Of a DNA stretch of 64,000 nt, positions 1 through 34,876 are shown one piece after another (position 1 is the stretch's first letter; every line of letters begins with the position of its first letter). Position numbers and translations under genes: made by a program. The DNA is from Podospora anserina (Eukaryota): the NCBI GenBank assembly GCA_017654855.1, contig CM030336.1:4774001-4838000 (forward strand), read 5' to 3'. Below the pieces are notes generated by a model. That model saw nothing but the letters and a program-made list of their open reading frames with translations, was not told where the DNA came from and searched no databases.

Positions 1-3000
1 TCATCCAGGCCATGGAGATCATGAAGATACTCTTTGAACTCCCTTGTCATTTGGCAAACTTGCCCAAAGTCCTTCTGATCCAAAGTTGGGCCATCATGCT
101 CCTTCTTGTCAGTCTTTTGCAGGAATCGGAAGTCTGCCAGAGCGACGGCAGTTTGGAATGCTGCGCACCAAAAGCTTCGTCAGTACATCGCCACGTGGAC
201 TTGATTAACTGGTCTTACCATTGCGATTTTCCCGGCCGTTCCATTCCAGCCTCTTTACGATCTCATCTTCCAAGATGTATCGTTTGGCTCGCCCAGTGCT
301 GATGAAGTCGTGACGCTCGTTGGTGAGTTTGTCGACGAACTGTGTCCAAATCTGGCGGCGATTGTCTTCACTGAGCTGATAGTACTTGATGATGTGGATC
401 CTGGAAATGAAGGCGTCGTCGAAATGCCCGACGCGGTTTGTAGTCAAGAACAGGATTTCTCGGTAATATTCTATACAACGAAGAAACACTGTACATTCAG
501 GGTCAGTATTACTGGTGTACTCAGATGAGGATGCTGACGCAGAATCTCACCACATACAAGGCTGTTGCGCCGAAGGTCACTAACAACGCGCCGTTCCAGG
601 TAGATATCAGCCTCGTCAATCAACATGACAGGCCCCATTTTTCGGCCATTCTGAACCACTTGGAGAGCTGCTGTTCCATCTTGACTTCGTCTGTGCCAAT
701 GTCTTCACAGGTGAGAGATAGTAGAGGACGGTTCGTATACTCCGCGATACATTCGGCGGTCTGATGAGGGGCAGAACTGTTAATCGTGCACGGTTAAGGA
801 TAAATGTATGCCGACCTACATATGTCTTCCCAACACCGGGACCGCCATGTAGCAAGAAGATATGACCCTCTCCATTGTTTTCAATAAAGTCGGCGCGCCA
901 CGATGTAGATAAGCCTGGTGTTGGGCTCATGTTGCTGTACTTCTGAACCAATGCCTTGATCATATCTTTGCGTGGCGCAGGCATGACTAACATGTCAATA
1001 GCCCTCGGATTGAGTTTAGGCTCCAAGCAATAGGCTACAATATGGACGCCTTGAATGGTAACAACAAATTAGTAAGCCTTGTAGTTATCAGAGAGTCCTC
1101 TATGTGTAGGTAGGGAGTTAAGGGATCTTAGCACCTACCCCAAGTTCTGGACTTCAAGAATATTCCATAGAGAAGAGAGTCACACAGTAGATATCGATGA
1201 TTGGAATCATGCGCCCCGGACTCCAGTGTAAGATTCTCCACCATTGTTGGATCCAGCAAATCGTAGGATGCGTACCGAAAGTTAGCTGGGGGATGGGGCC
1301 GTCTGCCATAACTGCGATCGGGGTTAGTCAGGCATATTCATCCCGAGTAAATGCGCTGGCCCTGCACCCAGTCTAAGGGTTTGTCTCACCACTCTTCACA
1401 CCCGCACATCGCCAAATTGCGTCCGATATCATTGACGTTGCAGATTTCGGGTGCTTTCTCTTCGAACTCGTAGTAGTAGGCTGCAGAATCGACGTACACT
1501 CGACCGCTAAGCTGATAGTTGCAGTCAGATACGTGTCAGAAGGCCATACTCCCGGGTACATGAGTGAAGCCAAAATACTATCAATGGTGCTTTGGAGGAG
1601 ATGGACATACCAAACCCGCTTTCCTGGCTTTGCGTATATTGGGCTTGTGACTAGCAGCATCCTCAGAGTCCATACTTTCCTCACTTGCCTTCCTCCTAAC
1701 AACGTGTCTGTTTTGGAGAACAAGTGCCGCCCGGTCAGACGGGTCGCATTGATAGAAGGCCGGCTGACTACGTAAGAGTTTGAACCATTGCCTCCCCTGC
1801 GCTTCCAATCTCGCTTTGGTCTCGCCACCGTCTTTCTTGTCGAAAAGTTCGGTTGGGAAAACCTTCAGTGATGTGATTTCACGTTCTTCCCGGAATGGTG
1901 GCACAACAACTGACGTCGTGCTCCTTCCAACAAATCTGCCATCAAACCTTAACGACCACAATAGGATCTGATGCGGCCCAAAGTCTCGACGGTTGTCCGA
2001 AAGAATGGCGGTGTCATGAACCATGGCATGGACCACATGGGCAGCGAGTTTACCTCCCGATTCCACGTATACTGTCGTGCCCGGCCTGAAGAGAAGCCAT
2101 AGCATCTGGAAAGTACACATATTCCTCCGATGCAGCTCCTGTTCGGTCTCGATCCTTCCTTTGTATACCTTTGTCTTGAGATAGTTATGAAGCAGTTCCA
2201 GATGCTCGGCGGTTGTTTCAACCAAGGGGTCATCCGGGTTAGCGTTCTCGTCCGGTTTGACTTCACCCTTGTGGTGACTGGTTTTGCATCGTTCATGGAG
2301 TGCTTCAAGCTCGCTCATGTGGTGACCTAGGATAGTGTAAGGTTCGTTTAGTGACAAGACTTTATGGTCAAGATCAACGAAAGGGTAGTATGAGACTACC
2401 GAGCGTAGAGCGCTGAGGGCTTTTGACTCGATAATGATTCTCATGGTATGCACGTGTACAGCGATGTTTTCGTCGGTGAGTATTCCGGCTACTTTGTCGG
2501 CTCGGGTATCATCGCTGAGAAATCGGAAATTCTCTGGTGCGTGTGATGTCTGGAGAACAGTGACAACACTAAAAACAGAAGCTTGATGCTTTGAGACACC
2601 CTTACGGGCCGCCGAGAGATCAAATGGTGTTGCATATCGCTGTTTGCCAATGTACTGACCCTTTGTGTCGAGGTATTCCACGGAGTAGGATATTTTTGGC
2701 TGCTAGGTATCTTCGTCTTCGCCTGACTCTTGTTCTGTTCTCGGAAGAGGAATATGGGGTGTTTCTCCGCGCGTTCGAATATCGAGGCAACCGATGCAAT
2801 GGCATCGTGGGTTGAATTTGCGCTTGGCTTCCTTGTCACGCTCCTTCGCACCCTTCTCAACTTTCTGTTATCCTGGGGCTTGATACGTCGGGTTGTCCCA
2901 CATAGACATCCCACACCGTGGACAACGAGGGAGCCCAAAATCTTGAAGATGTCCGTGAGACCGACCGTTCACCACACAGTACAGGGGAACTTTTGACGTC

Positions 3001-3214
3001 CATTTTCCCTTCTCCTCTGCGTTCATTGTCGATGGGGCTGTTTGATCATCGCTGGTATGTTGTTTGGGTTAGAAGATACTTGATCATCGACCTCTGTGGT
3101 TGACGTCTGTGGATCGATAGGTTCTTTAGTCGTCTTCTCACTTGGGGATTTATCAGTGGGTGATACTGGCTGCCGCGCGACGGGATGGCGGGCTACGGCT
3201 TGCAAAGAGGCCAT
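1..3214 (-). pseudogene. Fungal AAA+ ATPase (long N-terminal region + single AAA domain), disrupted; 3' end runs off the left edge
   Basis: Walker A FLLHGGPGVGKT, then TAECIAEYTNRPLLSLTC, Walker B VMLIDEADIYLERR, FLRCIEYY..LFLTTNRVGHFDDAFISRIH and WNGRE.RN/AFQTAVALA across several exons. Lesions: 1-nt deletion near 630 (TGG GGC CT GTC ATG breaks WGAVML), in-frame TAG at 2703-2705 just before QPKISYSVEYLD, and frame breaks near 3030 and 1770. Candidate ATG at 3214. Confidence 0.85.
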
Positions 3215-3535
3215 CGAGAAGAATTGACGGTCACACGTGGAGATCAACAAAGATTCAACTGGGGAACGAGAGTGAAGGACAGGACCGGGAGGCACGCGGG
3301 GTAGGAAAGAATACCCTCGCAATTACCCCTCACTGATGACACGGTCACACACAGGTCGGCTTTATGATTGTGCCTTTCGGATGCATTTTTAAGCGGCTCA
3401 AGAGTGACAACTCAGGCAGCACCATGCCCGTGGCTCTTTTGGATTTTTAGATTCCCACTGCTGCCCCACACCCTTCATCCCCATGTCAACAACTGGAAGG
3501 TCCATGGAGCAATAGCATAGGTGTTTTCTTGGACC

Positions 3536-5942
3536 ATGGCGTCATTTAGACCAGCAGATCCTAGGACTACCACAGCAGCAGTTCGATCCTACAGTCTCAA
3601 AGTCGAAAAAGAAAGGCCAGAAGATTCTTTATCCCAAGCACTCGGTGCCACGGTTCAGCAGGCAGACCATCAACAAAGTATTCAACGTGTCAAAGCACAT
3701 GAGTGGGTTAGTTGGCTCCAGAATGACTGCTCTAGGTATGTGAGCACATAAGGATATGCTAACCGTGCATCGATGTGTTCATACGTCTGAATTCACTAAA
3801 TGTCCATACCAGTGATCCGATTTTTGATCCCTTAGAGCAACAGCGCAAAGAGTTGATTCGAGTCTGGCAAGAGTTTCAAAGACTCTTCGTCCCTCCAGGA
3901 GACGTAATATCCGGGACCACTCACTCGTCACTTCCTAGCATTGCAACATTGCAAGCGGCAGTCAATGACACCCGTGTTTGATGGGAGGCCAAGCATGAGA
4001 CTGGCATTGGCCTCGCCAGGAATCGGTTCCTCCGCTTCATGGAGACAATGGATGATCACTCATTCTTATTCAAGTTTGTTCCGACAGAGGACAAGTACAT
4101 CAGCCTCCTCACCGGAGTCGTGACATCGGTTGTCAAGGTATCTTACCCAGCACCACCCTCCATCGTAAAAAAGCACCTCGTTTTCCTCTATCCTGTCTAG
4201 TTGACGCTAATGTGTTGGTCAGGCCTCAGTGAACTACCAGAAAATTGCCGAGGGATTCTCACTTGCACTTGTGGAAATAAGTGAGAACCTGAGATTGGTG
4301 CAGAAGAAAACACAAGTGGCAAACACAAAAGAAATGCAGAGGCTTGTCGTGGCACTGTATGTTCAGGTCTTCATATTTCTTTGTCACGCCATGTCTTTTC
4401 TCCATAAACGGCACAAGAGATTTCTGGCCTCATTCAACAAAGGATTTTATGACAAGACGGTAAAAGCCACGGTTGATGGTATCCAAAAGACAATCGGCGA
4501 CATCCGCAACGAGGCGCAACACACCACTGAGCTCCGCATTGAGCACATGCATCAAAAGATGAACGACCTGGAGCCAATTTTGGCCAGGCTGCAACAGCTT
4601 GGAATCCAGACTCACGCGGACACACAGCAGCAGGTCAATGCGAAAGTTGCCGCAGCAGCACAGGGCTTTCAGAGACTGGGTGAGAATGCTGTGCATCAGC
4701 TCGAAGGTGTCGATGATCAGGTCACACACGGTAAGTTGGCCATTCTCTTTCATCCTAAACCCACAAATGGGCCGCAGGGCCTTGAGTGTGCCGCGGGGCC
4801 TCGAATCACTGTTGTCACAAAGAGTGTCGGTCCACTTTTGAGTTACCACCTCCATTGTGTCCTGATTTCCACCTGTCTAGGTAATGCTGCGTGTGGTATC
4901 CCACAACGGCGCCTTTGCTGCTGCAACTAATTCAACGAGTTCCAACGTCACAGACATCACTACGCAGTCTCCACAGCAAAGCTCACACACCCTGCCCACT
5001 TTGACAGTTAACGAGTCAGCCAACAAGCCAGCCACGGCGAAACTTCCCAAAACAGGACAATCAACAAACCCTACGGAGGGTAAGACAGCCAGCCATGATA
5101 TCTATATCAGCACTTGCACAACTTAACTAACATCATCGTGGCCTGCAGAGACCACAATGTCCGACTGTTCGCGAATCCAACAATACGCCGAAGCCCTCAG
5201 ACCATTTATCGAGAGTGACGAAGACTTCCACAGAGCCCACCAAGAGCCAACCATGATCCCGCAAGAGGTCTATGAGCGGCTCAGCAGATGGATATCTGAT
5301 TCTGCCTCCAAGATAATGTGGGTAGAAGGCCCGGCGTTTTCCTCTGGCAGCACCGCGCTTTCCAAGGCGGCCTTGGAAGCCACCGACAAAGTCTTGAGCG
5401 CTGGCATTCCTTGCATTTCATACTTTTGCAAGTCCCGCTCCAGCTTTGCCAGGAGTAACGCCGGCGGCAGTGGCGGCGGAAGTGGCAGCACACCAAGATT
5501 ACGCCACAGAGATGACGCAGTCATATCTCTCTGCTACTCCATGATCCGCCAACTCGCCTATGTTCTTCCCCTGGAAGGGTTCAAAGCAGACAAAGCCCTC
5601 GACGCTAACCAATTCGAAAAGCTGGATGGAACTCTCCACAGCCTTCCCACCGCGTTGAACATCATGAACGCGCTGTTTGAATACGCACCGCCCGTGATCT
5701 GTTTTGTCATCGACGGGCTTCAGGATGCAGGAGACAGGGACAGCATCAAGTACCTCTGGAATTTCATAATCCTATTGCGTGAGCAAATGAAGGATTCCAG
5801 TCGGGTATGCAAGATCTTGTTCACGACTGATGGGCGGAGTGAAGTGCTGGATCGTGGCACAGAGGTGCGGGAGAGGGTGGATGCATCTAGGCCGGTGCAA
5901 GCCAGGGGAGGAAGATCATTCCCGGGTGGTGTTTACATCTAG
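3536..5942 (+). pseudogene. NACHT-associated helical N-terminal domain (DUF7708/Goodbye-like) + degenerate NACHT/NPHP3_N-like P-loop fold, no C-terminal repeats; premature stop
   Basis: Multi-exon model (introns approx. 3737-3812, 4138-4222, 4731-4880, 5080-5148). Motifs HSFLFKFVPTEDKYISLLTGVVTSVVKASVNYQKIAEGFS and MQRLVVALYVQVFIFLCHAM; last exon RLSRWI..MWVEGP..ISYFC..ICFVIDGLQ..KILFTTDGRS. In-frame TGA at 3979-3981 with the frame open on both sides. The exon 3/4 junction phase is unresolved. Confidence 0.7.
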
Positions 5943-5967: not shown

Positions 5968-6462
5968 CTCTTCTTTTATCGTTCGTTCTTTTTTATAGTT
6001 TGAGCTTCATCCCAGCATCAAGCATATTTACCCCGCCTTCGGATAGATCTTGTCCCAACTTAAAATAGGCATTATCCCAGCGTAAGACCAATATTCCCAG
6101 CTTTAAAAAGACAGTATCCCAGCTTGAAACCAATATTTCCAGCAATAAAAAGACATTATCCAGCTTAAAAAAGATATTATCCCAGCTTATGATTAATTAT
6201 CCTAGCTCCAAAGGGCATGATTCTTCTTTCGTTCCTTCGTTTTGGTCTAGTTTTTATCCCAATATCCGCCATACTTTACCCCAGCTTAGGATAGACATTA
6301 TCCCAACTTACCCAAGAATAACATCATCAGTCTAACTTCTCTTTACCCTTTGCCGCAATTATTCTCCAAAACTTATTTCTCATCTAATTCATTTAATTCA
6401 CAAATGTATTTATCGCATCATCCCAGCTTGAAAATCACAATTATCCCAGTTTGAAAATCAAC
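5968..6462. repeat. Degenerate AT-rich minisatellite, core (T)ATCCCAGCTT, about 21-bp period
   Basis: Cores at about 6011, 6032, 6054, 6076, 6096, 6118, 6138, 6159, 6181 and 6201, with more at 6255-6310 and 6420-6450. The block 5968-6062 is repeated degenerately at about 6221-6310. Confidence 0.8.
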
Positions 6463-7254
6463 CTCATTTAAACTTTGCAGTATTCTCCAGTACAAGAGCA
6501 CATTACCTCTGTTAAGAAGGACATTATCGCACTTTAAAAGGACCATGTTTTATCCGAACTTGGTTGATGATCCTCAGCTGCTTCAGTCTACATGCCCGTG
6601 TGAGACGAATCTGCATAAGATAATGGAAAAACAAATGCGGAAACTCGTACCCTAACCATACGAGCCTACCAGTAGGCAGGGTGCCAATGGTGTAGCCGGG
6701 AATATGGCTAGTCTGCTCTAAGCTGACATCAGTCAGCGTCCGCGCATCAAGCAAGGATGATTACATACGCAGTAGGATTAGGAGCGGTGAACACTACCCC
6801 TCAAAGCCATTATACGATACGGTATCATCAACGCACTCAATACAACAGGCGTGATTCATTTGTCAGCAGCTAGAGCTACATCAACGTTGGTCTTCGACAT
6901 TTGGGGTTGAATTTGACCTCTACGAGCCTCCGCTGTTGGTAGTGCTGACAGGAAACAATGATTTCGAAGGGGTAAAATTACACGAGAACGGGGCTAGAAG
7001 AAGTAAAATACAAAGTTGCGACTCGCTTAGGGGATCGTCACTGATGAAATACTGATCACAGACTTCAACCTTCCTAAAAAGGTACCATTCCCAAAGGCAG
7101 CTTGAAACCCTGAGCATTGTGAACGCAAATATAAAGCACATTAAGTATAAAGCACATTGCCTCACCGACTTTTGTCTGGCTTCATCACTCTCTCCATCGA
7201 CATCCTCCACAACCCTGTCTCCTCAGCCTTCAACAAAAAGCCTCCCTCGCCAAA

Positions 7255-23821: not shown

Positions 23822-26800
23822 TTACTTCCAGTAAACATCCATCCAAAACCAGTTCTTCGGATTAACAGCCGCCGCGCCCGTCCTAGCCCTCCCTCTCTCC
23901 TTCTGTCTCGGACCAGTGACATGCTGCTGCGCAAGTCCCTCACTGTTACCCACAACCGCTCCATACTTCTTCACTCTAGCAGGCTTGGGTTGAGTTGGTG
24001 GACGGGGCGTCATCTCATGTCTCTGCTCGTCGATGTTTTCCCACTCTCCGTCAGTTTTCTGCGCTGCCTTCCCCTTTCCTTTGTCCTTGTTTTTGTTCTT
24101 GACAGTAACTGCTTTCTTCGCTCTTGAACGAGTGAACAAGCCCCTCTTCTTCTTAGGTTTGGGTGGCTCGTCAAACTCAGCTTCGTTGTATTCAGGGATG
24201 GTCTGTTGCCATTGTTGAGGTGTCTGCTGCTGGCGAGCATTAGGTCCAACAATGGCCCCAACCGCGGAAGTGCGTCTGTTTGGACCTTGCATGAGTTGCG
24301 GGCTGCCAGACTTGACACGACCCACACGGGCTATTTGGTCGTCCTGGGTGTTCATCTTGCCCATCTCGATGTCGTCGGTAGACTGGGTCTTTTTCTTGGA
24401 AAGAGAGAACAGTCTGGCCCAGAAGCCCTTCCTTTTCTCCGGTTGCTGAGCGTCGATATCAGGTGAACCACCCGAGACGGCCTCGCGCGGGCTGGCTCGT
24501 GGTGACTGTTTTTGTAGTTGAGACTTCTTGCCAAATAACCGGGCCCAGAATCCTCGCTTTTTAGGTGCTTCGTCAACCTTGTCGGCGGGTAGCCGTTCGG
24601 CTGCCATCATCTGAGGCGATTGGAAATTCTGTGGGCCACGCTCGACTGTTGCCATGTTGCCGAAGTTGGCGCTTTGTCGTGTAGGCTCCATGGCGCGGGC
24701 CTGGCGAGTGTTCTGCATTTCGTATGACTCTTGAGGGATCGGACTGGGGGCTTCAACATCGGTGACCACAGTCTTGTCGCGTCGGCCGAACCATGCGAGG
24801 AAGCCCTTCTTCTTCGGCGCAGGTTCCTCAACGTTGGTGTCGTTGGCAAAGTTCCACTCGTTGGCCGGCTGAGGCGCTAGGCTAGGTGTCCGTGAAGTGT
24901 TGTTTTGCACAACATTCAGTCCGCGAGAACTTGTCGCGTTGGGAGGCGTTGGTTGAGAAACTGGCCGAGATTGCTCCGTCTGCTTGACAATCGGAGAGTT
25001 GCCGCTGCTCCCGGGCGTTTCTGTGGTACTCTGCTTTTGCTTGCCAAATCCAAAGAGACCCTTAAATGTCCACCCAGATGATTTGCCGGTGGAGGTATGA
25101 TACTGCTCCTCGAGTGATTCCATGCCAAATCCAAGCGTTGCTGTAGCCATGAGAGGAAGCAGCCACAAGTACCTTTGGGTGTTGCCGCCGTGCTTAGCAG
25201 TAACATTGGCTTTTGCCGCGTCCTGAGTGTTGTTATCCGAGACACTGTTCAGCTGCATTGGTTCGTTGACCTGATATGCGTCCTGACTGTTGGATCTTAG
25301 CCCTGGGTTGGCACTTCGAGTCTGTTGCTCCGTTGGGTGCGTTTGCTTGGGAAAGAGACTCATTGGGCGGCTTGGAGGTGGAGGTGGAGGGGGAGGTTGA
25401 TATTGTTGTTGCTCGACAACTCTCTCCCCCTGCACGATAATGGCGGGTGATGATTTATAACTATGATACTCTGGCTGCTGTTGGTCGTAGCCATCCTGCG
25501 CAATCTGCTCTGGTTGGATATAGGTGTAATCTTCGTATGGGCTTGCTGGTTCATCTTGCATGTACTCTTCTATGGATGGTCGATCATGAGGAACTTGGTA
25601 ATCCACCGATTCCACTCGCACCGGAGACACTGATGTTTGGCGGGCAGAATAGTCTTTGGAAACACGTTGTGGTGACTGAGGTGGCATTTGGTGGGAGACT
25701 GGAGAACGCTCAACCGGGGCGTATGTGTCGAAATTTCTGGCATCCGCATTTATGATCTCAAACTCAGGTTCCGAGAGTCGTCGATCGTCGCCAATGGAAT
25801 CAGGCTCCGACAAGTAAGTGTTAATATCAGCTGCGGGGGACTGAGCGCTTTCCATCGGGCTGGGGGGTGCGGCAAACCCACGGGTGCTTTGTTGAACGGG
25901 AAACTTTGGTGGTCTAGGCCAAGCAGCAGGGTATATGTGGTCAACCTCCGCAGGGGTTTGGGGCGCAGTCATTGCGTTCTCACCAGCCCAGCCCGTATGG
26001 TCGTAAGCATCATCTTTTTCCTCGATGTCCTGTTCCTGGTGATAGTGCTCGGTGGAAGTGAATCGACTATCGACCAGTGGGCTTTGCTGAAAGGTAAGAG
26101 GTGAGAGCATCTCGTGATCGTGAGGGTCATCAGGCGGCGTCACGGGTCTGTGTTGGCTTGCATCCCATCCAGGCACTGGGCTCGAGACATACTCGACATC
26201 TTGTTGCATATCTTCGGGTGGCGGGGTGAGCGGTCTTGGAGATAGTAGCTGCGAGTCACGTCCCCAGTTAGAAGCAACTGCAGGGCTCTTCAGATGGTTG
26301 TTGAAGGATGGAGAGAGTGCATTGGATCCGTAGGTGTCATCATCTGGGGTGATTGGGCGGGGGAACTGCTCGTCTGTGTGATGGGGCTCTCCAGAGGTCT
26401 CCTCGGGATTGTAAGGTTCTTCATCCAAGGCCTGATGAATCTCTTGTGCCACGGGATAGACCACCTCTTCATCAGAATAAACGATAATTGTCTCGCTCTC
26501 ATCCTCTCGGGTCTCAGGTTCCAGCTGTGGTTGGTTTAGCGGTGGGGATGGGGGAGGCGAGAGATCGTCAATTGGCCCTTGATAAGACGGCGTGGGCTCG
26601 GGGTGGACGGGCAGAACGTCATCCTCTGGTTGAGAATGAAGTTCTTCATGATATTCGGGCTGCTCGTCAGTGTATGGAGCTTCCTCTTCTGTCAGATCAC
26701 CTCCCCAGCCTTGTCCAGAATACAGGTCTTGCCCTGGCTCCTCGTAGCTTTGTTCCACTGGGACTTGGCCATGTTCCTGATTTGGCTCTTGGACCATATT

Positions 26801-29800
26801 CTGATACTCCTCTTGGGAATGTGGAGCAATTGGCTCATCGAAATCCTCTTGGGCTAGTTCGTCGTATGTCGCATCTTGCGGTTGCTCTTCGAGGTCCTCC
26901 TGGATATATTCATCTGTCGCTTCGTTGTATATTTGGTCTTCGACGTACTGTTCCGATACCTGCTCGACTGCTGGTTCATTGTCTGGTTCTTCGTAGGTAT
27001 GTTCCGGATATACTTCTGCAGTGGCTTGCTCGTTTGCTTGGACAATCTCTTCCTCGGAAGCTGGCTCCTCGTATGCTGGTTTGTGGTGAGATGGCTCATC
27101 GTATATCGGCTCACCGTCTTCCTCTTGAGATGCTGGCTCCTCGTAAACCTCCGCGGAAGAATTATCATAGACAGGTTCGTCAGCAACCTCTTCAATGGGC
27201 TGTGAAATATGCTCCTCATATGCCTCCCCATCAGGCTGCTCGTATACCTCCTCACTTGGCTCCTCATAGAAGTCCTGCGCCGGCTCCTCATTCTCCTGCT
27301 GAATCGGCCCATCGTAGGCTTCCTCGGCCAGCTCCTCATACACATCCTGAGCCGGCTCTTCAAATAGATCTTGAACAGGTTCCTCATTCAACTCCCCGTA
27401 CACCTCTGGCCCCTGTTCCTCATATACCTCCTGAATTGGCTCTCCAAACTCCTCTTGAAGAGGCTTATCATACGCATCTTCTGCAGCAGGCTCCTCTGTA
27501 ACAGGCTCCTCTGCAGCAGGCTGCTCATACACCTCTTCAGCAACGGGTTCTTCGTACACCTCTTCAACAACCGGCTCTTCGTACAGCTCCTCCACTGACT
27601 CTTCGTAAACCTCCTCAACTGGTTCTTCATACGCCTCTTCAACAAGGGGTTCTTCATACACCTCCTCAGCCGGTTCTTCATACACCTCCTCAGCCATTTC
27701 TTCATACACCTCCTCAGCCGGTTCTTCGTACACCTCCTCAGCCGGTTCCTCGTAAAACTCGTCCACTGGTTCTTCGTAAAACTCCTCAGCTGGCTCCTCA
27801 TAGAACTCCGCAGCTGGCTCTTCAAATGCTTCTTCGACTGGCTCCTCATCTTGAAAGCCCTCGTCGAATACCGCATCGTCCTCTTGCACGAAGTCAACGT
27901 CTTCCGCAAATACTTCGCCTTCCGCATCGCCAAACTCCTCTTCCATGGGCTGTTCGGGTTCAAGCGCTGGTTCTGGTTCCAGTTCTGGCTCATAGTCACC
28001 AATCTCCTCCTCTACATACACTTCAGGCTCTGGCTCCGGTTCATATACCGGCTCTGGTTCAGACTCATAAACTTCTTCAGGTTCAGGCTCTGCTTCGAAG
28101 GTACGGTCAAACTCAGCTTCAAATGCTGGTTCAGGCTCGGGTTCATATGCTGGTTCGGACTCGAGCTCATACGCTGGTTCTGGCTCGGGCTCATATGCTG
28201 GTTCAGGCTCGGGCTCATAGGCTGGCTCAGGCTCCGGCTCGTAGGCGGACTCCGGGTCGTATGAGGGCTCTTCCAATGCTGGTTCGTCCGCGGGCTCTGG
28301 CCTGTAGCCGTCTTCAAAACCGGTATCCATGGGCTCCAAGGTGCGGTCGCCTTCGTCATACATTTCGTCCTGAGTGGCATCCTCGTACATGGCTTCTTCT
28401 GGTTCACCAAACTCTTCAACTGGGCCCTGGTCATCCGGATACTCCCCGTCCATGGGAGCTGGGTCTTCGTCAAACCCCTCTTCCATGATCTGCTCCTCCT
28501 CATATACCTCCTCCTCCACTGGAGCCTCCTCAAACAGAGGTTCCTCCTCAAATGGAGGCTCTTCCTCAAATAGAGGCTCCTCCTCAAATGGAGGTTCCTC
28601 CTCAAATGGGGCTTCCTCTCCGAATGGGGCCTCCTCTTCCTCCTCTCCAAACTCCATGTCTTCGCCCCGATCACCCTCTTCGCCAAACTCATCACCCATC
28701 TCCTCAGCATATTCGTCGCCTTCTCCAAGCTCTTCGCCCACATCCTCGCCCATCTCTTCGTCGAACTCATCACCTGTGGAATTGTTAGCAAAGTTGTCTG
28801 TCGTCATGTGTGAAATGATGGTGAGCTCGCCTTCAGGATAGTCTTGGGCGAATTCCTCCTCGGCAAGCTCCTCCTCGAACGGTTCGCCGGCCTCTTCATC
28901 GTCGAAACCGCGCTCGCCATCCTCGGCGAAGTCTTCTTCCAGCAAACCATCCTCAGCATATTCACCCTCAGCAGCCTCGCCATCTGCGAATCCATCCCCG
29001 AATTCCTCACTATTGGCGAGCTCACCATCTTCCTGGTACTCACCTTCTGCAAACTCTTGTTCCCCTTCCGCACCCTCGCCATCGAAGTCCTCGTCCAGAC
29101 CCCGCTCACCGTCTTCAAAGTCGCCCTCCTCACCAAACTCACCCTCCTCACCAAACTCTCCTTCTTCGCCAAATTCGTCGCCTTCGGCAAACTCTGCACC
29201 TTCACCTTCAAATTCTCCCTCCTCAACATACTCTCCCTCGCCGTTCATAAACTCGTCATCATCTAAACCACGCTCACCATCCTCAAACTCACCGTCCATT
29301 TCTGGATCAAATTCGCCCTCGCCCTCTTCACCTTCCTCATATTCACCCTCCTCACCTTCCACGTACCCACCTTCTTCTTCACCTTCAGCATACTCACCTT
29401 CCTCCTCACCCTCCATGTACCCACCCTCCTCGGCAAACTCACCTTCTTCCATCTCCTCATCCAAGCCGGGCTCGCCATCCTCTTCATCATAGCCCTCACC
29501 TTGCTCCTCCCCTTCAAAGCCTTCCTCTTCAGCGTACTCTTCCTCGCCTTCGAGGTACTCTTCTTCAGAGAGCTCCTCCTCTTCACCCTCCTCAACATAC
29601 TCCTCCTCGTCCTCTGCAATCTCGTCCTCATCAAGCTCCCGCTCACCATCTTCCTCGTCAAGGAATTCTCCCTCTTCAGCTTCACCCTCACCATCCTCAA
29701 GATACTCTGGTTCTTCCAACGACTCACCCTCAACATACACCTCCTCTCCCTCCCCATACACCTCCTCTCCATCCTCTCCCTCCTCATACTCCTCCTCATC

Positions 29801-32800
29801 CTCATCCTCATCCCAGCCAAGGTCGTGAGTCATACCAGGCGGACCATACATCGCCGCAGCAGGAGTATCAAGAACAGCATACATATTCTTCTCAACAGCA
29901 AACTTTTCCTCGTCGTCATCGTAGACGGTGAAGAGGTCGTCGTCATCTTCTTCGTCGAGCAACTCAGAGACAAGCTCGTCCTCGTTGAAGTCGTCTTCGA
30001 ACTCAGCAGCTTCGTCTTGACCGGAGAGGTATTCACCTTCTTGGTCGTCTTTAAGCAGGTCTTGTCCTTCCTCGGCTTCGAGGAAGATATCGCGTTCGCC
30101 ATCTTCGCATTGATATTCTTCTTGGCCTTCAAAGTCCTCTTCCTGGTCGTTGAATTCTGGTTGTGCGTCAAGTTCCTCCCGACCTTCAACGTCCTCTTGG
30201 CCATCAAATTCCGGTTGGTCGTCATAATCTTGCTGACGGTCGAAGTCTTCTTGGTCCTCCTCAAGATCCGACCCACGCTCGCCATCGTCGTCGAAATGCT
30301 GATCGTATTTGGGCTCTTCCTGGTCTTGGTACTCATCTTGGTTGTCAAAGTCCTCTTGCTGATCGAGGTCCTCATTCCCATCAAGTTCACCCTGGTCGCC
30401 AAAGTGTTCTTGATCTTCAAGATATTCCTGCTCATCTTCAATATCCAGGGAGCGCTCGCCGTCGCCGTCGAGATCCTCTTGGCCTTCGAAGTCTTCTTGC
30501 TCATCAAAGTTGTCTTGGCTTTCGTGCTCCTCCTCGTCTTGACCCTCAAGCTCTTCCTGGCCGTCGAAGTCTTGTTGCTCTTCGAGGTCGGCTTCGCACT
30601 CAAAGACCTCCTCAGCCTCGGGATCTAGCTCTCCATCTCCTTCTGGCTCTGCACATTTCTGATTTTGAAGCTCCTCAAAGGTGATGTGGTCGTCAGCGGT
30701 AGGGATCTCGAGAACACCCAAGTCACCAGAGATGGTGTTGAGAAAGTCGGCGTCAAAGGCTTCCTCAAGTTCACGGAGCTCTTCTTCGGTCATTCGAGGT
30801 TCTTCAGGCTGAGCTTCGTCTTCGAGAGCAACTTCTTCACAGACTTCTTCCTCGAAGCCCTCTTCGTCGACCTGTTCGTCGCCAAGGGGCTCTTCGTCAA
30901 GCAGCTCTTTGTCAATCGGCTCTTCATCAAGGGGTTCTTGGTCAGTCGGCTCCTCGTCAAGGGGTTCTTCTTGAAGGGGCTCCTCGTCAAAAGCCTCGTC
31001 GTCAATAGCGTGCTCGTCGTAGTAGTACTCATCCTCCCTGTCCTCAAGTGGCTGATCATCAACAGGGATGCCATCGCCCTCAAAGACCTCATCATCAAGC
31101 GAGCGTTGACCGTCGACAAATTCGTCATTTTGTGGGGTGTACTCGCCATCTTCCAAAGGAGCCTCTTCATCGTACTGGGCGTTGTCTTCTCCGGCATATT
31201 CGCCGTCATCGACGGGTGCTTCCTCCTGATACTGAGCGTCATCCTCAGTGTACTCGCCGTCCTCAACAGGTTCCACTTCGTCAAACTGGTTGTCGCCGTT
31301 TTGAGACGGATACTCTTCCTCTTCGTAGGCGGGGTCTTCTTCGTATTCTTGGCCTTCAACAGGGATTTCTTCGTCGTAATGCTCCGAGTCGTCGTGATCA
31401 ACGAAACCTTCACCGTCAGCTTCTTCGACGAAATCCTCAGGTAGAGAGCGCTCCCCGTCGATTAAGTCCTCTTCCTCCGGCTGATACTCATTTTCCTGGA
31501 GGAGATCTTCGTCGTATGGCGGAGCATCGTTGTCGAGGGCCTCGGTGTTGAGTTCTTCCTCGCCATTGGTGAACTGCTGCTGGTCATATTCGGGGTATTC
31601 ATCATCTTCCGGAGCAGGCTCCTCGTCGTATTGATCGTCAGCAGTAAACTCGGCATCTTCGTCGAAGTATTCCTGGTCGCTGGGTTGGTACTCTTCATTG
31701 CAAATCTCGTCTTCAGCGGGAGGTACTTCAGATGCGTAGCCATCTTCGTCGACGAAATTATCGTTGTCCGGGGGATTGTCTTGGGCATCTTCATCGTAGA
31801 GGGCTTCATCAACAGGTGCCTCTTCATCAGTGAAATACTGGGTTTCAGAGGAATAGTCGACTTCTTGGCCGGCAACAGCCTCCTCAACGATATGCTCGTC
31901 TTCCAATGCTTCTTCCTTCTCGTATTGAACCTGACCGTCATCAACGGACTGAGAAGCGTCCTCGTCGAGATATTCACCGTCAGACTGAACTCGATCCTCT
32001 GGGAACTCGTCACGAATGGGGCTCTCAACAGGAGTCAAATCCTGGGGCGTGAACCCTCCGTCGACAGAACTGTTTTCGAATGAGCGATCAGCCTCAATTG
32101 CTTCATCGGCATCTTCCAGAGGATAATCATCATCTTCCACAGCAAGGGCCTCCTCCTCTCCATATTGGACTTGGTTTTCGTCGGCGGGGCAGTCTTCCGC
32201 TGGAAGATCCTCTTCTTGGTCTTCAGGTGTCATCTCGGCGCCATCTTCATCCACAACTTGCTCGTCGTCCGAGGCAGCAGGGGTGAATTCATCAGCGTCT
32301 TGCCCCAGTAATCCCTCCTTGCCGTCAGAGGCGTTCTCATATGATGTCTCCGCCTCCTCGCGAAACTCGTCATCAAACGATTCAGCATGTGGAGAACGAG
32401 CCTCGTCATCTGAGGCGCCGTCTTCAGTTTCGAGGGTATCTTCTGGAAAAGCGTCGTCTGAGGTAGGGGTAGCCTGACTTTGCGCGTAGTCGTCTTCAGC
32501 GCAGTCGTCTTCTGAAAGCTCGGCATGGGCAAGGTTTTCGGGGGCGTTGGTTTCTGGCAGGTTTACATCCTCTTGATGGACGGCTTCCTCCTCCACAGTC
32601 TCATCAACCAGGTCGGGAGACCGATCCACCTCTACGTTCGCCTCCTCATCCTCAGCGACGTATTCGCTTTCCTGTTGGTCCTCGCGAGAGAAATCCTCCT
32701 CAGGGGAATCCTGCTCGTAAAGCCCATCATCATTGACCTCGTCCTGGCCAGGCTGAAAATCCTCGTGGTCGGTCCCCATGGGGCGCTCTCCATTTTCATC

Positions 32801-34876
32801 AGAGGACTCGGGATCTTTCAGGCTGTATTCCGCCTCCTCAAAGTTGTCAGAGATCACCTCATCCTGGTTGATGTCTTGGAAGCTTCCATCCTCGGAAGCT
32901 TGGTCATACTGCTCAGAGTCGGAGATGTGCTCCTGGGCGAGGTCATCGTCGGCGGCGACATGTTCTTGGTGCGCGGAAAGGGTCTCGGCATCGGCGGGCT
33001 CCTGGGTTTCTTCATCTTCCGGGATGCTCTGAGAATCGACGGCGTCGTCGTCGTCCTGAACCAAGTCCTCTGGTTCCGTTGAAGGAAGAGGGGAGTCCAA
33101 CGCCTGGTCGACATCGGCCCGAGTCTCTTCGTCATTTGATGCATCTTCAATGATGGGGGTTTGAGGCTGGGAGATGACATCGTCGTCGACTGCGATATCC
33201 TCGTCTTCATCGACCTCGCCGTGATCAAACTCTTCCTGTTCAACCTCCTCGTCATGATCGCCGTCTTGCTCAACTTGCTCGTGCTGGTCGTCCTGCTGAG
33301 CATCGTCTTGGTCCACCTCCTCGTCGTCCTGAACAGGCTCCTCATGACCAACCTGCTCCTGATCAATCTCTTCATCCAGCTCTGACTCAACACCCTCGCC
33401 ATCAGAAACCTGTTCTTGGCCATCATGCTCTTCATTTTCGTCAAGGTTATCCTCAACGGGCATTTCTTGGTCCAAACCAGCCTCTTCATCTTGCAAGGAT
33501 GCCGATTCATCACCAGCGACGGATTGATCACCAGTGGAGACTTCAAGGCCAACATCTCCTAGGTCAAGCTCATCAGACTCAAGACCTTGCTCTTCCGCAT
33601 CATCCGCTCCTGAGGTAATATCGTCTGACTGGGGATCGTCATTCTCTTCATCGGCAGCATGTTCCTGCGGTCCAGAAACGACAAACTCGAACCGTGGTTG
33701 ACCTTCGAGACTCTCTGGCTCGAAATCAGGCTCATCTTCCAATGGCGGGTTTTCTTGGTAGTAGTCGTCAAGTGTCTGCCCATCTTCTTCGTCTTCGCCG
33801 TACGGGATAGTCGGTGGAGGGTTGTAGTATGAGCCGAGATCAGCTGTTGTTTGATCATCGTATGGGTTGGAAAGATGTCGCTCTTGATACAGTGGGTGGT
33901 CCTCTGGAATGCCATCATCGCCGTAGTCCCCGATCGTGAAACCAGGTGAGTCTAGTGGTTCGTCACCTTCGACCTCTAGTTGTGGGGATGCCGGGGGTTG
34001 GTCTTCTCCTGGAGGCTCATCGACTGGCGGTTGCGGTGATGGTGATGGCGAGTCTGATGGTGTAGACAGGATTGATGGCTCTGTCTGTTCCGGCTCCGAT
34101 GGAACAGCAACGGGGACTGGAACAACCTCATTCTCTTTTGGTACCTCGACGGTGAAATCCTTCTTGATGCATGGATTTTCCCGTCTCCGCCTCCCATTCT
34201 TCCTCGGCCCGTAGCAGTCCTCCTTTTTGTGATCTTTCCCAACCCTATCCCGGTGCCACTCCAAATTCCAATGCCATGGCCCTCCCTCAGCAACCTTCCT
34301 CCCATTCCACGTGCCAAGATAAATGCTAAACGGGCTAATAACCCAATTCTCCTCGCTGAACGGAGCATTACACTTCTTGCAGGCCGTGTCCTCCGCATAA
34401 TCCGCCACCTTTGGCGCCAAAAACCCATTAAAAGCCCCATCATCATCAAAAGTATTAATGGCCTCACACTCCCCACACCTCCACGCCTCGGGAGTCTGAT
34501 CAAACTCTCCCACAACCCTCTTGTCGCTGGTGGCAATCTCCCGTGACCCAGAAGAGTTCACAATCATGCAGTTTGAGCAGTCGACAAAGGCATGATCACA
34601 CTCCCCGCACTCCTCGAGCGGCTTGAACAAACTGCTCGATGCCCAGCACCTGCAGCATTTCCGCCGCCCGGGCACGCCCTTCCTCTCTTCTTCTGTAAAC
34701 TCCTCTGGTGATTTGGCGATAGGAAGTGAAAAGTCCCCTCTCACAAAAGAGATCCCCGGTGGCTTTTCCACCAAAACATTGTCGTGGTGGCCACAAGGCC
34801 AGACATACTCGATGAGGTTCGGAGATCGTCGTGTGGGTCCCATCTTGTCCTTCTGTGTAAGTAATTCCACGCTCAA
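23822..34876 (-). CDS. Giant (about 3670 aa) hyper-acidic, largely disordered protein with N-terminal Cys/Zn-ribbon cluster and basic C-terminal tail
   Basis: Uninterrupted 11-kb ORF; first ATG at 34843 (MGPTRR). CxxC-type pairs in the first 200 aa; about 2800 aa E/D-rich with [14 protein letters not shown] and EEGEFG repeats; probable in-frame 57-nt intron at 28774-28830. Confidence 0.9.

Follow-up and report, generated by a model that had tools for sequence, protein, structure and literature searches.

A pseudogenised, still transcribed copy of a conserved divergent gene pair encoding an AAA ATPase and an NLR-like protein in filamentous ascomycetes

The first 5,942 nt of a 64,000-nt stretch of contig CM030336.1 (the window; fungal, nearest to Podosporaceae) hold two divergent genes: an AAA ATPase gene on the minus strand and, on the plus strand, a gene encoding a DUF7708 protein with a C-terminal nucleotide-binding domain (NBD), here called the partner. 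Their start codons, ATG 3214 (minus) and ATG 3536 (plus), have 321 nt between them in the sequence, just as a preliminary description of this DNA had stated. That description had also called both copies inactivated and this holds as well, as the AAA gene carries stop codons and a 1-nt deletion and the partner an in-frame TGA. We conclude that a divergent two-gene module conserved in filamentous ascomycetes is present here as a pseudogenised copy, which is still transcribed and spliced.

Gene models, splicing and lesions

The gene models draw on the sequence, homologue alignments and four public sequencing runs from four studies. X7 and X10 are DNA, while X15 and X17 are RNA-like; the RNA nature of the latter is a software guess, and ten GT..AG joints are seen only in these two runs. 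All ten introns are absent from the X15/X17 contigs and present in the X7/X10 DNA contigs. As ten segments with GT..AG ends are skipped, both genes are transcribed and spliced. The many changes of frame could be read as frameshifts, but most are introns according to the X15/X17 joints, and a frameshift is thereby ruled out for ten of them. The features are as follows.

1..3214, minus: DUF7025 + AAA + AAA_lid_13 pseudogene (Pfam; tblastn against homologues P0001 and P0003; spliced X15/X17 contigs)
~1-160, 219-489, 554-760, 820-1048, 1138-1311, 1390-1511 and 1611-3214, minus: AAA gene exons (alignment and spliced contigs)
161-218, ~490-553, 761-819, 1049-1137, 1312-1389 and 1512-1610, minus: the six AAA gene introns (GT..AG joints, X15/X17)
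~630..634, minus: 1-nt deletion between EKWG and VMLIDEAD (open reading frame (ORF) list, sequence, alignment; no indel difference in 4/4 runs)
823..846, minus: Walker A GGPGVGKT of the AAA core (ORF list, homologue alignment)
2703..2705, minus: in-frame TAG of the AAA gene (ORF list, sequence, alignment; same in 4/4 runs)
2868..2870, minus: in-frame TAA of the AAA gene (ORF list, sequence, alignment; same in 4/4 runs)
3023..3025, minus: stop of the 63-codon frame from ATG 3214; the main frame opens at ATG 3026 (sequence)
3215..3535, no strand: common 321-bp divergent promoter region (sequence and transcript contig ends)
3536..5942, plus: DUF7708 + pseudo-NBD gene (Pfam, homologue alignment, spliced contigs)
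3536-3735, 3813-4137, 4223-4730, 4954-5079 and 5149-5942, plus: partner exons, 650 codons and a stop
3736-3812, 4138-4222, 4731-4953 and 5080-5148, plus: the four partner introns (GT..AG joints, X15/X17)
3979..3981, plus: in-frame TGA at codon 123/650, the sole partner lesion (sequence, alignment; same in 4/4 runs)
5319..5363, plus: degenerate P-loop WVEGPAFSSGSTALS, with no Lys (ORF list; family alignment)
5703..5723, plus: Walker-B-like FVIDGLQ (family alignment)
5940-5942, plus: partner stop codon (sequence)

The minus-strand gene matches the Pfam families DUF7025 (9.7e-21) and AAA_lid_13 (7.5e-13). Its 3′ end crosses the start of the window: residue 937 of 960 of the Apiosordaria backusii homologue aligns at base 3, and the last ~23 codons lie outside (tblastn). 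After the deletion at ~630-634, Walker B (623-606), sensor 1 and the lid are no longer in frame, and the shifted frame ends at a stop at 622-620. A working enzyme needs an open frame across Walker B and the lid; the 1-nt deletion and the two in-frame stops break it here, and neither Walker B nor anything downstream of it can be made from this copy of the AAA gene. Judging from the sequence, the stop at 3023-3025 is probably a further, N-terminal frame break, or else it closes an upstream ORF; the former is suggested by ~70-110 residues that the homologues and the metagenome contig L001 (see below) have ahead of the W..C..NGRSH motif. The two copies of a 10-nt direct repeat, TTGATCATCG (plus strand; 3042-3051 and 3080-3089, 38 nt apart), flank the point where the frame from ATG 3214 and the main AAA frame diverge.

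The plus-strand gene matches DUF7708 (8.9e-11). Over 633 alignment columns its product shares 79% identity with a 662-residue Podospora bellae-mahoneyi protein. Directly 3′ of it lies an array of 21/22/42-nt tandem repeats (unit ...TATCCCAGCTTAAAA...) at 6045-6189, and the region 6001-6500 is AT-rich (GC 0.37 vs ~0.50 around it). Truncation of the C-terminus by the AT-rich repeat was considered and ruled out, as the relatives terminate at the same position. Transcript contigs of the minus-strand gene reach 3294 (X15) and 3242 (X17) and those of the plus-strand gene begin at 3406, so that opposing transcript contigs are at most ~112 bp apart.

At the lesion sites, none of the four runs shows a difference or an indel. 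Elsewhere they depart from the window at four positions (553, 799, 2582 and 5343). Lesions that are unchanged in 4/4 runs differing elsewhere are real and older than this strain diversity. We therefore rejected assembly error as their source; the intact ORF of 3684 codons in the same window also indicates that the assembly is not riddled with indels. The module is dead in this organism.

The uninterrupted 3684-codon ORF (23822-34876, minus) encodes an extremely acidic product (E 21%, D 11%), contains 48/75-nt tandem repeats at 27541-27823 and matches no Pfam family at E ≤ 1e-5. At position 5343, X15 and X17 read C for T, which changes Ser to Pro in the partner P-loop (GPAFSSGST to GPAFSPGST). 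Pro is frequent at that position in the aligned relatives of the partner.

The two protein families

The AAA gene encodes an AAA ATPase of the classical clade, whose long N-terminal region contains Cys-rich motifs and DUF7025. Walker A and Walker B are conserved and the lid is kept in 19 orthologues, and the nearest solved relatives by profile are VAT, Msp1/ATAD1 and p97 (E 4e-9 to 1e-5). DUF7025, the AAA core with Walker A and AAA_lid_13 are all carried by the gene in the window, which fits membership of this family.

The partner belongs to a large family: its C-terminal domain finds 599 cluster representatives at E ≤ 0.001. Pfam places DUF7708 in 30/30 relatives and NPHP3_N in 15/30, and the atlas neighbours of the partner are DUF7708, NPHP3_N and NACHT clusters. 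A sequence search of the C-terminal domain against solved structures gave nothing below E 0.3. Its AlphaFold2 model (predicted local distance difference test, pLDDT, 89.8) has the AAA+/STAND nucleotide-binding fold. The model matches Avs3 (Z 11.4, root-mean-square deviation 3.7, 184 aligned), ZAR1 (Z 11.2), CED-4 (Z 9.8) and Apaf-1 (Z 8.9); ORC/Cdc6 score level with Avs3 and ZAR1 (Z ~10.5-11), and Foldseek returns ORC, Cdc6 and TnsC at E ~5e-4.

The partner had been described as NACHT-like, with a degenerate Walker A and no sensor repeats. The nucleotide-binding subdomain is there but the full NACHT module is not, since the protein ends ~15 residues past the last NBD strand, with no winged-helix module and no sensor repeats. 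The degenerate P-loop and the missing repeats are likewise present, but as family traits and not as decay. A Walker A GK[S/T] is found in 0/151 aligned relatives, the window having GPAFSSGST. No repeat family is detected by Pfam in the gene of the window or in 30 relatives, and the C-terminal domain reaches the protein end in full-length members (e.g. 395-642 of 656), so the absence of repeats is the norm in this family of 599 cluster representatives. The Walker-B Asp is kept in 136/160 aligned sequences and the Gly in 133/160, and the third residue past the Asp is Q in 82 of the 160, E in 38, H in 16 and D in 10. The partner C-terminal domain is thus a pseudo-NTPase domain that the family conserves.

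The predicted model of the N-terminal 350 residues (pLDDT 80.7) consists of helices throughout. Its matches were confined to designed helical repeats, CAMP factor and the like, none above noise; as all Z scores were ≤ 8.7, no fold was assigned. Foldseek gave nothing at E ≤ 0.001 for the N-terminal model, and the HeLo Pfam family had no match among the partner members searched.

In three Podospora-group sequences (the window, P0199 and P0021) the N-terminal 345 residues are 87–89% identical, and the NBD 58–70%. The gap is smaller in other lineages (N-terminus vs NBD: 76 vs 73%, 92 vs 82%, 80 vs 74%). Fast evolution of the NBD, paralogy or gene conversion could each account for the Podospora divergence. 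A related gene (cluster of P0195) is annotated as split in P. anserina (Pa_1_21520, 291 aa) and in P. comata (291 + 392 aa, consecutive accessions), and is intact in P. bellae-mahoneyi (662 aa). The P. pseudocomata model P0021 opens at a Met just past the position matching the TGA at 3979-3981.

Linkage of the two genes in other fungi

Homologues were collected with an AAA exon (20 matches), the last exon of the partner (7 matches) and a 30-sequence partner profile (14 matches). These independent searches converge on the same genomes, seven of which appear in the AAA list and in a partner list. In 7/7 genomes checked (Sordariales, Nectriaceae and Apiospora), the two genes carry consecutive GenBank accessions:

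Triangularia verruculosa: KAK4195605/604
Apiospora hydei: KAK8071311/312
Apiosordaria backusii: KAK0716572/573
Chaetomium sp. MPI-SDFR-AT-0129: KAH6630497/496
Dactylonectria estremocensis: KAH7123500/501
Dactylonectria macrodidyma: KAH7131325/326
Cylindrodendrum hubeiense: locus tags g2379/g2378

An eighth genome, that of Nemania abortiva, has both genes on one contig, given as 167,975 bp long for each of the two proteins (ids 284378 and 284376). It came from ten partner-family representatives picked blind, of which one shared a genome with the AAA matches. A metagenome search with an 8-sequence alignment yielded one locus, L001 (2743 bp), with the AAA N-terminus at 1047-1 (minus) and the partner from ~1654 (plus). 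The two genes are head-to-head, ~600 bp apart and both open to the contig limits. The earlier suggestion that homologues of the pair would be adjacent is thus borne out by the consecutive accessions, the one-contig pair of N. abortiva and the head-to-head L001.

Paired AAA genes occur in every major clade of the tree of the 20 AAA matches, and the AAA gene of the window groups with those of A. backusii and T. verruculosa at 97. For nine common taxa, the AAA and partner trees agree in 4/6 splits, including every split with support ≥ 99; the two conflicting splits involve long branches and have support of 58–94. The co-phylogeny proposed for the pair is therefore found at all strongly supported nodes. 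One AAA homologue, P0007 of Xylaria curta (1628 aa), is annotated with DUF7025, a HET domain and AAA_lid_13 in a single protein; this is probably a gene model merged with a HET-domain neighbour.

Taken together, we consider it highly probable that the locus is a decayed copy of a conserved module. The preliminary interpretation as a whole is supported in part: the linkage, the agreement of the trees and the inactivation have stood, the partner features are family traits rather than decay, and the roles of adaptor, decoy or antitoxin are putative.

Possible function, alternatives and known systems

The explanation that we favour, with a probability of about 0.5, is a conserved module in which an NOD-like receptor (NLR)-like protein depends on an AAA motor. 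The partner (~650 residues), which has no Walker A lysine, would be unable to switch nucleotide states alone, and the adjoining AAA motor would then supply the ATP-dependent step in trans. The motor might act on the DUF7708 protein by remodelling, activating or restraining it, as part of an NLR-like pathway of cell death, immunity or allorecognition. We give direct functional coupling of the two proteins an even chance, and hold a cell-death or immune role only tentatively. More speculatively, and in our view unlikely, the pair could be an ancient “split NLR” of filamentous ascomycetes: a death-domain-like DUF7708 protein with a burnt-out NBD, run in trans by a dedicated head-to-head classical AAA unfoldase. 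Canonical NLRs carry their nucleotide switch and their sensing in cis; in such an arrangement the switch, and perhaps the sensing too, would have passed to the AAA motor. The NBD of the Podospora group diverging faster than the N-terminus, together with copies that are lost or split, would then fit a role in allorecognition or immunity.

Several points weigh against the favoured explanation. Nothing in the data gathered shows the two proteins touching; co-folding of part sequences (P0003 130-864 with P0022 405-665) gave scores of 0.20, 0.43 and 0.00, which speak neither for nor against binding. A common promoter is compatible with co-regulation alone. Neighbour status covers 8/20 AAA matches, with 12/20 and most named partner-family proteins outside the check. 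Orientation was seen directly in the window and L001 alone, the seven accession pairs giving order only, and it is by GenBank numbering practice that consecutive accessions stand for adjacent genes. The link of DUF7708 to the pore-forming Goodbye, HeLo and MLKL domains is weak. One UniRef name labels P0191 “Goodbye”, and Pfam Goodbye matched 0 of 30 members at E ≤ 0.01 and 0 of 6 members at E ≤ 10. The MLKL N-domain (6ux8) and AtMLKL3 both scored Z 5.1, which for helical models does not rise above noise. Goodbye-like domains are related to HeLo/MLKL bundles in passages of PMC9815663.

Mere adjacency by chance would require two members of large paralogue families to have met repeatedly. Both families are indeed large (599 cluster representatives for the partner, and DUF7025-AAA genes are common), but consecutive pairs in 7/7 genomes, co-location in an eighth, the same layout in L001 and trees that are congruent at supported nodes all stand against it. 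Since a genome has thousands of genes, the odds of such a meeting recurring by chance are negligible, and we regard this alternative as effectively excluded. A weightier alternative is that a bidirectional promoter alone keeps the pair together and that the two proteins serve a common non-immune process, such as quality control or Msp1-like membrane extraction, with no receptor logic and no cell-death output. The AAA core is nearest to unfoldases and extractases (VAT, Msp1/ATAD1, p97), the ATGs are 321 bp and the transcript contigs at most ~112 bp apart, and no MLKL or HeLo match rises above noise, all of which would suit this account. Against it, DUF7708 and NPHP3_N are hallmark N-terminal and nucleotide-binding domains of fungal NLRs, and the partner belongs to a large family that evolves fast and, in Podospora, has been lost or split in particular lineages, a pattern commoner in immune-type than in housekeeping genes. 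We consider this account unlikely, though it is the strongest of the rivals.

An addiction-like pair, along the lines of the preliminary description, would combine a product that does harm by itself with a second one that neutralises the first, and would explain co-decay, as loss of one gene would select for loss of the other. Both copies here are broken, and the linkage is tight in eight genomes and one metagenome contig. One instance of double decay is no proof, however, and since the lesions are fixed in 4/4 runs their order is unreadable. Moreover, the P. bellae-mahoneyi partner is intact (662 residues), and no long Podospora AAA protein is found among the 20 AAA matches; this absence, if real, speaks against obligate co-retention. 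We find such a pair improbable. The dependence of an NLR-like protein on its AAA neighbour remains our preferred explanation.

If this explanation is true, a Walker-A-dead, sensor-less NLR-like protein working with an active AAA motor would be a new wiring scheme. The pair would also give a first functional handle on DUF7708, DUF7025 and AAA_lid_13, which are Pfam domains of unknown function. As intact pairs exist in culturable saprotrophs, the idea is directly testable; the copy in the window matters chiefly as a natural knockout. Fungal NLRs have so far been framed as single tripartite receptors, amyloid-signalling gene pairs and gasdermin/protease pairs. In the literature searched, nothing was found on a fungal NLR with a divergently transcribed AAA ATPase. 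Neither was any mention found there of AAA_lid_13 or, with the supplements of PMC12258605 and PMC9815663 outside the search, of DUF7708, DUF7025, their PF numbers or Pa_1_21520. The linkage in many other fungi points to an undescribed two-gene AAA/pseudo-NLR module.

The AAA protein resembles VAT, Msp1/ATAD1 and p97/Cdc48 in its core by profile (E 4e-9 to 1e-5), with motifs and lid kept in the orthologues. Unlike them, it has a single AAA module after a ~600-residue N-terminal region (Cys-rich motifs, DUF7025) with no solved relative, and its AAA_lid_13 lid is fungus-specific. The adjacent two-gene split between a receptor or switch and a putative executioner recalls het-S/nwd2 of Podospora anserina (PMC4344463). 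In that system, which signals by a common amyloid motif, NWD2 is a complete NACHT-WD40 NLR. The second gene of the present pair is instead a classical AAA ATPase; no amyloid motif was seen, nor was one looked for. Plant sensor/helper NLR pairs, as presented in passages of PMC12258605, are likewise head-to-head with a short common promoter and a division of labour between two proteins, but both of their partners are NLRs, whereas here one is a classical AAA ATPase. The same passages report a survey of Sordariales for NLR-NLR head-to-head pairs, with 13 among 225 two-NLR clusters; NLR-NLR pairs alone were surveyed, and these text passages do not mention an AAA partner. With the canonical fungal NLRs (DUF7708/Goodbye-like N-terminus, NACHT/NPHP3_N, ANK/WD40/TPR) the partner family has DUF7708 in common (30/30 members) and a homologous nucleotide-binding domain (NPHP3_N in 15/30). 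It departs from them in its P-loop (GK[S/T] in 0/151), in having neither winged helix nor repeats, and in the AAA gene that lies beside it.

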